A DNA stretch of 64,000 nucleotides from Laetmonice hystrix. Taxonomy: Eukaryota. Location: positions 36,272,001 to 36,336,000 of the forward strand of contig OZ249436.1 of assembly GCA_965235115.1 (NCBI GenBank). The letters are read 5' to 3'. The notes beneath the pieces were generated by a model. The model saw only the letters and a program-made list of their open reading frames with translations. It had not been told where the DNA came from and ran no database searches. A program made the position numbers and the translations under genes. This document shows, in pieces, positions 6,701 through 9,700 of this stretch. Within the stretch, counting starts at the first letter, position 1; the number at the start of each line of letters is the position of its first letter.

Positions 6701-9700
6701 AACTAATGCTTCCTCAGAAATCAGACTCACTTGCAATTTTCATTTTAGAAAGGCATGTCTCTATGTATGTAAAATTACAGGCTGCTGAATGTAATCTGGG
6801 GCTAGATGATTTAATGATCTCATTACCAACGGTAATGTTGATAGTGCTGAAAACATGGTCTTTGTATGAGTAGAATATGTTGGTCATTCCCAAATTTGTG
6901 ACAATTTTTAGATCCAAGAAGGATGCGAAGGCCGTTGCCCATCAGACTGATGGCAGCATTCCCCTGGAGAAGGTGGACGGTCCTGGGGGAGCCGACCAGT
7001 ACGAAGTTGTCTCAGGGAAGCAAGCTTACCAGCCCAAACTACTCATAGCGCTTATACAGTCCTTTGCGGCACCCTTCCTGCTGGGGTCATTCTTCAAACT
7101 CATTCATGATATCATGATGTTCTTCAGTCCACTGCTGCTGAAGTAAGTGCCCTGGAATCAGTTCTGATAATCATACCTTACATGGGGAAAACAATGTAGA
7201 TTTGTTGTATGGACTCTGTTAAGGATTTTGAAACTTTCGGGTATGTCATACAGATATAACAAACTGTTAGACAAGTTGTAGTTTATCAAAGAACTATAAT
7301 TTTCTGAGGAGCAATATATAGTACATGTATATGGATAACATTTCCCTCCATTTTGCATCAAATTTGACCATGTTAACAAGTACCGGTATGTAATGATTAT
7401 TGGCTGTTGCTAATAAACGTAATTGTTTTATTGATTAGCGATATCCTGATTCTAATTCATATTTGGTTCAAGTTATTTCTGTTATTTGTAGAAGTTTTTC
7501 CACTTTGTTTGGTTCTATGGAAGTACTGGTCTATGAGATACTGAGAGCGTTGACAGTAAATGAAACCTTACGTGGTGTATGGTATGATTCTGTGCTATCC
7601 CAACATCTTAGAGGGTTATAGTGCAGAAGTAAAAATAAAGTAGTTTGTGCATCGTGCCTCACTGTTTCTTCCCATGTGTTGAAATGATCTAAAAGCTGGT
7701 TGCTATTTCAGGCAGCTGATAATGTTCACACATAACAAGGCGGACTATGCGTGGAAAGGCTACATTTTGGCATCACTAATGTTCGTTGTGGCATTCTGTC
7801 AGTCCCTCATTTTGCACCAGTACTTCCACCGCTGCTTCCTGACTGGCATGCGTGTCCGCACAGCGGTCATCGCCACAATCTACCGCAAGGTATGACGATA
7901 TTCTGACTCTAGGGGGGTTGTAAAGGTTGTAAAGGTGCTTGAAAGGACTTGAATGCTGCAAAGGAAGTTTCAATAAAAAAACACGTAAAAGGTCCTTGAT
8001 TTTTTTTAGCCAAGAATAAATACTGGAGAAAAATGTACTCCTCATGTCGAGTCTTCTTCTGCCCAGGGATTTGCTTTAGTCATGCCCCACTTTTATGAAT
8101 ACAGTGGTAGTTTAAATACTGTATTTCTCATGGAAAGAGAACTTATGGCGAACAAGAGAACCTGATATTTTTGTTTGTGTCAAGGTTCAGCCGTGAAACT
8201 CAAAATGGATTGCCTAAAAAGTCCTTGGAAGTACTTTTGTTCATATAAACCTGTACAATCCCTGTGACTCTTTCAGCCATGGTTTGTAGTTGTTTGTGAT
8301 GTAAAGGGCCTGCATGAGGAGACCCATGTTGGCGTGGTGGAGCAATGATTGGGTGCATACCAGACTTGGCTTTTGTCAGCTGTAGATAATTTAGGATGAA
8401 TCAGGAGTTTGGGATGCTGTTGTCTTCCAATCTCTTTACTCGGCTACAAACGTCAAGCCTGGTGGGAACCAATTTACTTTCCCTCCAAAAATCAACTCGA
8501 GTCTCATGATGAACCAAAACCCTCTGTGGTTGGCTTCCAACAGAGAGATGATACTCTTCGTAGGAGATGCAAGCAAGCCCCAGTGGCATGGGTATGCCCT
8601 CTCTCTAACCATGTTTGGCTTTGCTGAGGTTCAGATGATATTTCGGCATCAGTATTTCCATGCTGTCACACGAGTCAATGGTCACCTGAGAACGGTGTTC
8701 ATATCTACAGTCTTCAAGAAGGTAATCGCTTCCTTTAGATCTGCCAGTAATCCTCTACTCCTTGTTAACATCCCATTACTTTGTGTGCAGCTAAAACATA
8801 TGTTCTGATGCATTGCACTAACACAAAAGTAATCATTCTATAGAAGATGGAAAGCAAAGAAGGGTCATTCACAGCCGTTTACACTTCTCTTCAACAAGAA
8901 AATGAGGACGAATGTTCTGAGGGAGTCGGCTAAATTAAGTCATTTCCTTGGGAGACCATTCGAATACGACCAGTGCTATAAAACAAATGGTCCGGTTCAA
9001 CCATTGGTGTGGTTAACACTGGCACAACAGTTAACAGGTGCAACCAACAAATGGTGTGAGCAGAAACTAAATGATGGACATCTAGGGCAGATTAAGATAA
9101 TAACCATATATAACACTCGCTGATGTGATATTAAAAGCATGGCTCTGTTCAAACTTTGTGAACTATTTCATGTCAAGGATATTACGCCGGTACTGACAGC
9201 CTATCACTTTTAATTTTTTTAAAATGATATAGCCACTGTGCACTGTTTGATGTATCTAAGTAGTAATGACATCATTTTTTACTAACCATTTAAAATTTTA
9301 CTTCAACATTTTGTATTGATATATTATTTTATTATTGCCAGTACATGTAAGATTCTTATTTTACGGTACTTAGTCCAAGAGCATTCTCAGCATTCAGAGC
9401 TGGTGTATTTGGCTTTAAAATATTTATCCCAAATTCCTATACTTTGCTGATTTGTTGGGTGTGTGGCTAATACATTTGTACAGTGTTACACCCATCATGT
9501 AACTGTACTTAGGAGGTACCCCAAAAAAGTTTTTAACAAATTGTATGTATCGCAGGGGTATAATAATGCAAATTACGGTTATCGAGCAAGACACCATTTT
9601 AATAAGATTTCGCACAGGCCTTACGACTGAGCAACAGTGCCAGACGGACATCGACAGTCGGAGAGATCGTTAACCTGATGTCGGTGGATGCCCAGCGGTT

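Follow-up and report, generated by a model that had tools for sequence, protein, structure and literature searches.

An MRP1-type transporter gene with two TM7 exons

The window, by which we mean the whole 64-kb stretch of Laetmonice hystrix DNA analyzed here, contains a gene for an ABCC1/MRP1-type transporter. Its TMD1-NBD1-TMD2-NBD2 core lies in one open frame with best matches to ABCC1; 5′ exons coding for TMD0 were not located upstream of the model start at 3603. Among 120 proteins, the best full-length matches are invertebrate MRP1-like proteins (Owenia 67%, chiton 64%; 60–67% identity for this group), and the best PDB matches are MRP1. In a quick-search tree of 22 proteins, with one ABCC3 as the sole paralogue outgroup, the protein groups with those of Capitella and Paralvinella and one other protein (SH-aLRT 99), which points to a probable annelid origin. 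The exons that concern us are these:

3603..28598, + strand, host gene, ABCC1/MRP1-type transporter (26-exon model, 1403 aa)
6912..7142, + strand, constitutive upstream exon, TM6, with the equivalents of K332, H335 and D336; ends in phase 2
7712..7889, + strand, exon 1a, canonical TM7 exon (MRP1 348-406; L381, F385, F389)
8544..8721, + strand, exon 1b, divergent TM7 exon (E375, M378, R381, F385, T389, N392)
9618..9872, + strand, constitutive downstream exon, with the equivalents of Y440, M443 and Q450; starts in phase 0
17804-18114, 19996-20306, 21484-21794 and 23737-24047, + strand, four alternative TMD2 exons of 311 nt each, a widely shared MRP1 cassette

Exons 1a and 1b had been proposed to form a mutually exclusive pair that swaps TM7, and the architecture of such a pair is present in length, phase, splice sites, homology and frame logic. 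The coordinates, lengths, phases and peptides given in the original prediction were all exact: each exon measures 178 nt, has AG/GT ends and runs from phase 2 to phase 0. The two do align without gaps, with 20 of 59 residues and 79 of 178 nucleotides identical; tblastn of 1a against 1b gives an E value of 3e-9 and returned no third TM7 exon copy in the window. The similarity of the exon DNA exceeds that of all 200 shuffles (200/200), and the introns flanking 1a and 1b cannot be aligned, their similarity lying within that of shuffles (p 0.055–0.955). The host-gene model is an open frame of 1403 aa with either exon alone. Inclusion of both indeed shifts the frame, which then stops inside 1b, and inclusion of neither leads to a stop three codons into exon 9618. 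This is the anatomy of the pair, and its frame logic admits one exon only. We consider it likely that 1a and 1b are tandem TM7 exon copies spliced in a mutually exclusive manner, giving two pumps that would differ in the wall of the glutathione pocket.

Steric exclusion was ruled out as the basis of exclusivity, because the intron between 1a and 1b is 654 nt long. Both flanking introns are GT-AG, and no minor-spliceosome donor was seen in either by eye. An intron of this length and type would also let both exons be spliced into one message, and double inclusion ends in the stop inside 1b, as would be expected if 1b were a poison or tuning exon that shifts the frame, sends the message to decay and sets the level of the pump, not its type. 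However, a poison exon needs neither an open frame nor conservation at the protein level, and 1b keeps both; we regard this explanation as very improbable.

In three public runs from a single sample, contigs span 8031-10433 without a break; they are DNA with introns included, and 1b is therefore real genomic DNA and no assembly artefact. Between 1a and 1b, the stretch 7905-8270 holds many haplotype variants and a 20-nt inverted repeat (7931-7950 / 8219-8238); it looks like the remnant of a small mobile element and is single copy within the window. Two insertions, 10434-10533 (100 nt) and 13573-14104 (532 nt), are missing from the run contigs, i.e., polymorphic, the second being a very high-copy repeat. 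An intronic tandem repeat at 4070-4550, with a unit of about 39 nt that copies the end of exon 4024-4085 plus its donor, creates many decoy donors. A candidate 21-nt in-frame micro-exon lies at 5423-5443, upstream of exon 6912, at a position that carries 12 optional residues in amphioxus isoforms. Another candidate, of 24 nt and also in frame (14212-14235; AG/GT, good pyrimidine tract), falls in the NBD1-TMD2 linker, at the place of optional pieces of 7–9 residues in mollusc isoforms.

Alternative exons in MRP genes are already known, and excerpts of two papers (PMC6071210 and PMC9741552, citing Yue et al. 2017) describe repeated, independent tandem exon duplications in metazoan MRP/ABCC1 genes. 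Exons 1a and 1b resemble the arrays described there: the gene family is the same, and equal-length, homologous tandem exons swap transmembrane segments. The host gene also has the TMD2 cassette found in mollusc, brachiopod, sea-urchin, amphioxus and insect isoforms; its four exons share 36–53 of 103 residues pairwise, and all have weak donors. The 20 isoform groups that we compared represent 18 species (molluscs, a brachiopod, sea urchins, amphioxus and one insect). The TMD2 exon is swapped in 15 of these groups, one more having an insertion there, and the TM7 exon in none; four further isoform comparisons gave no TM7 exon difference either. Cimex (P0120 cluster, residues 547-593) also swaps the equivalent of exon 11035-11181, which is single in the host gene and lies about 150 residues downstream of the TM7 exon. 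This Cimex cassette would correspond to the fly 'exon 4'. Among 58 loci, many of them distant and some non-animal, all 43 that hold TM7 and the next exon have one TM7 copy, and 24 of these 43 extend to the preceding exon as well. Proteins of Glossina, Tigriopus and Acipenser match TM7 twice, but these matches were rejected as multi-exon repeats or fused models, not single-exon pairs. A literature search that lay outside the main MRP splicing literature returned no published report of an alternative TM7 exon in an MRP gene. The predicted TM7 swap differs in position from the TMD2 and Cimex TMD1 cassettes; the survey of Yue et al. may list a TM7 case. The 1a/1b pair is a well-formed candidate for mutually exclusive splicing, ordinary in kind for the MRP family and apparently new in its position.

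The TM7 segment and the glutathione pocket

The TM7 exon covers the loop before TM7, TM7 itself and its cytoplasmic extension, and both copies map without gaps on residues 349-406 of bovine and human ABCC1 structures (8vt4, 5uj9, 9lg6 and others). Excerpts of a structural report (PMC12647609) place L381, F385 and F389 of TM7 on the lining of the GSH pocket and the release site, and state that GSH export falls in the L381A and F385A mutants; these excerpts describe no alternative TM7 for ABCC1. The pocket residues K332, H335, L381, F385, Y440 and Q450 are all present in the 1a isoform, and 1a, which also retains F389, is canonical as first described. In 1b, F385 is kept and two pocket positions are changed, L381R and F389T.

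The Glu and Arg that had been placed in the 1b helix are E375 and R381, which occur in 5 and 2 of 154 homologous exons, respectively. In a smaller, non-redundant set of 80 homologous exons collected without 1b as a query, E375, M378, R381 and N392 are each absent (0/80), and T389 occurs once. The original prediction also had 1b lose a conserved GMR motif. This stands for the glycine, as G392 is kept in 151 of the 154 exons and N392 is found in none, and for the methionine, with G393 in only two of 154. It does not stand for the arginine, since H394 is a known state (10/154), and R396 is kept in 1b. The L381R and F389T changes in the substrate pocket are more telling than the loss of GMR. The odd residues of 1b (375, 378, 381, 389, 392 and 399) cluster on the pocket face, within 80 degrees, a description confounded with column conservation and therefore not counted as more.

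According to excerpts of PMC8267652, the paralogue ABCC6, whose cargo differs, has Glu at MRP1 position 381. From such published work on MRP1 and ABCC6, we infer that a 1b pump would have an altered cargo preference. With Arg 381 and Thr 389 in place of Leu and Phe, it might carry a different set of anionic or glutathione-linked compounds.

Apparent maintenance of exon 1b

Exon 1b is as strongly diverged as had been claimed: its profile score of 57 compares with a minimum of 68 among 69 full-length homologous exons. Synonymous sites between 1a and 1b are saturated (NG86 dS undefined; ML dN 0.80, dS 17.7; LWL85 and YN00 give no estimate for this reason), and 11 of the 20 shared residues use different codons. 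It is conceivable that 1b is a once-functional duplicate, now a relaxed and decaying pseudo-exon that is rarely or never spliced, so that only the 1a pump is made. The lowest profile score of 70 exons would fit this, as would the loss of the near-invariant G392 and the change of Y404 to F. On the other hand, 1b has acquired no stop and no indel despite the saturation of its synonymous sites, and many of its residues unlike 1a are common states in the family (V353, D355, S357, P359, V376, L395 and V403). Second codon positions are the best kept between the two exons (34 of 59, vs 23 and 22), and the GC3 of 1b, 0.54, is exon-like (exons 0.38–0.71; introns 0.33–0.41 GC). Its splice sites likewise speak against decay. 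The acceptor scores 7.7 (constitutive median 7.2) and the donor 6.4 (constitutive range 3.6–12.7), both within what the constitutive sites of the gene reach. Of 448 decoy AG and 486 decoy GT sites, about 97% score lower, and the acceptor belongs to the following region:

8503..8543, + strand, 3′ splice region of 1b, with a candidate branch point CTCAT at 8503, a 40-nt AG-free zone and the acceptor AG

Simulations (3000 each) bear on both sides. When 1a was left to decay neutrally to 20 or 27 identities, the runs free of stops never reached the profile score of 1b. In the most lenient set-up, of about 44 substitutions, the probability of no stop is 0.20 and that of no indel 0.004–0.13, odds that are biased in favor of 1b because an intact exon is what drew attention to it in the first place. 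In that set-up, at equal consensus identity, the pattern of substitutions in 1b does no better than neutral decay, either in profile score (P 0.32) or in conserved columns (P 0.18), and a decaying exon would show the same.

The searches for an orthologue also favor decay. None was found among 77 matches, which include no close relative and of which the best has 45% identity over the full length; a word-based protein search gave four candidates, none significant, and a scan of metagenome contigs gave 217 pattern matches, none confirmed. From the features of the exon itself, we hold it quite probable that 1b is spliced into mRNA. Between the run contigs and the window, none of the 40 substitutions listed (of 243) and none of the 12 indels listed (of 41) falls in 1b; their absence was not counted, because with 17 listed variants in 2403 nt it is about 1/4 likely. 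Contig X1, the sole one with all gaps accounted for, has no indel in 1b, which again argues against a pseudo-exon. Taken as a whole, we find a decaying 1b unlikely. The exon looks maintained by selection, not decayed, and we read it as an old duplicate whose frame has been preserved under selection that is loosened or redirected; it would have arisen by an exon duplication restricted to this lineage.

An intronic element and its possible role in the choice of exon

Messages with early stops are targets of nonsense-mediated decay. As messages with both exons or with neither carry such stops, this decay is a likely filter and would remove them. A further step may lie in RNA pairing. In the intron upstream of 1a lies an element that is complementary to 1a and 1b at one and the same coding stretch, a finding that is new here:

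7516..7544, + strand, element in the intron upstream of 1a, complementary to the codons for Q377-H386 in 1a and 1b (core 7518-7530)
7799..7828, + strand, predicted target of the element inside 1a (core 7816-7828)
8631..8662, + strand, predicted target of the element inside 1b (core 8648-8662)

The core forms a perfect inverted match with 1a in a repeat scan (13/13 Watson-Crick) and 15 bp including G.U with 1b at homologous codons; in both exons, the pairing continues in register to the Q377 codon. In a comparison of 10 region pairs, neither exon has a better partner than the element, at single-pair p values of 0.075 and 0.05. The joint helix reaches −23.4, against a null of −14.9 ± 1.3, and was equaled in 2 of 3000 intron shuffles (p 0.0007). 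Real DNA holds seven other comparable sites in about 879 kb; at that rate, about 0.005 such sites would be expected in the intron at hand, and 0.02 over the three flanking introns. One of 17 host-gene exons pairs in this way with its own upstream intron. At the same codon stretch, no comparable helix was found in 24 single-exon loci, those of 35 with both AG/GT exon ends (best −19.5; none with p below 0.05). Three further loci (L039, L043 and L055) showed significant upstream pairing and were set aside for lack of AG/GT exon ends.

The pair may well be genuine even if the element matches it by chance, is the relic of an inverted fragment, or serves ADAR as an editing-complementary sequence. 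This alternative concerns the pairing step only and would leave the choice of exon to splicing factors and nonsense-mediated decay; we lean slightly toward it. The element was found post hoc, its pairing to 1b is partly implied by the homology of the exons, and a helix with 1a alone of equal strength arises in 22 of 3000 shuffles, with 17 exons screened. The codons of 1b are not significantly tuned to the element (P 0.17; 1a, P 0.046), and the TMD2 cluster yielded no element or docking-selector layout of this kind in 14 tests (p 0.1 or higher throughout). Intron-exon duplexes are also typical ADAR substrates. What chance explains less readily is the joint match, with a probability of 0.0007 by shuffle and roughly 0.005–0.02 against real DNA, as well as the helix with 1a in both MFE and centroid folds and the register kept as far as Q377 in both exons. 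The variant listed at 7517 in the element (runs X1 and X3) also keeps the 1b pairing and adds a 1a pair (0.996).

A role of the element as a regulator of exon choice is possible, somewhat short of an even chance in our judgment. The element would pair within the coding sequence of 1a or of 1b, never of both at once, and would do so most easily in 1a, the nearer one; we put this forward tentatively. In folding, the predicted probability is 0.95–0.98 for the 1a helix and 0.001 for the 1b helix, and masking of the 1a target raises the latter to 0.91. The dominance of the 1a helix at equilibrium (0.97 vs 0.001) means that energy by itself does not make the arrangement a balanced switch. If pairing simply masked its target, the odd exon would be expected as the default. 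We propose instead, again with less than even confidence, that pairing dampens 1a so that the later-transcribed 1b gets a share; this is the least certain step, and its sign is itself a proposal. The full reading, in which the upstream-intron antisense element masks the pocket codons of the bound TM7 exon, leaves exactly one exon free and toggles the pocket wall between Leu/Phe and Arg/Thr, is doubtful as a whole.

Known systems offer partial parallels. In human ATE1, excerpts of PMC7797038 describe competing R1R3 and R3R4 pairings that hinder the 3′ splice sites of exons 7a and 7b. The likeness lies in a single element with two alternative partners, one linked to each exon, and in action by hindrance, all of this predicted here. 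As far as those excerpts go, the ATE1 elements are intronic and sit at 3′ splice sites, whereas the predicted targets here lie in coding bodies, about 90–115 nt past each acceptor, and the shared element lies upstream of both exons, unlike that of ATE1. In Dscam1, balancer pairings overlapping the first exon hold back the proximal exons and work against first-come-first-served splicing (excerpts of PMC8791459, whose supplement text has no mention of 'MRP1', though its figure S15 is said to cover MRP1). An upstream-intron element competing for several partners is common to Dscam and, as predicted, to this gene. However, the Dscam selectors described in those excerpts lie in introns and switch on the exon that sits immediately outside the loop, and here each acceptor would sit inside it.

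The docking site-selector layout of Dscam, 14-3-3zeta and insect MRP1 finds no support at 1a/1b: intronic layouts gave p 0.41 upstream and p 0.15 downstream. The MRP1 docking sites reported in excerpts of PMC6071210 lie in the downstream intron, and we found no such site for 1a/1b. A second TGGAAGTACT motif near 8226, within the inverted repeat of the polymorphic stretch, did not score (p 0.14), and Rfam gave one sub-threshold match (E 0.93).

From a biological perspective, MRP1 pumps serve to remove toxins and glutathione conjugates, and in animals, swaps of TMD2 exons have diversified these pumps again and again. A TM7 swap would reach the glutathione side of the pocket, which is constant in the compared animals, and 1b offers a natural L381R/F389T variant for studying the choice of cargo by MRP1. 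If the full reading, doubtful as it is, were true, the four TMD2 exons would bring the gene to as many as eight pumps, in which each half of the pocket varies on its own. As the target of the element is coding sequence, duplication of the exon would, on that same reading, have made the second target and the switch in one step. Pairing of this kind, if real, would be a simple way for a duplicated exon to come with a switch for exclusivity built in, the coding sequence serving at the same time as the RNA target, and might bear on why tandem duplicates so often turn mutually exclusive.
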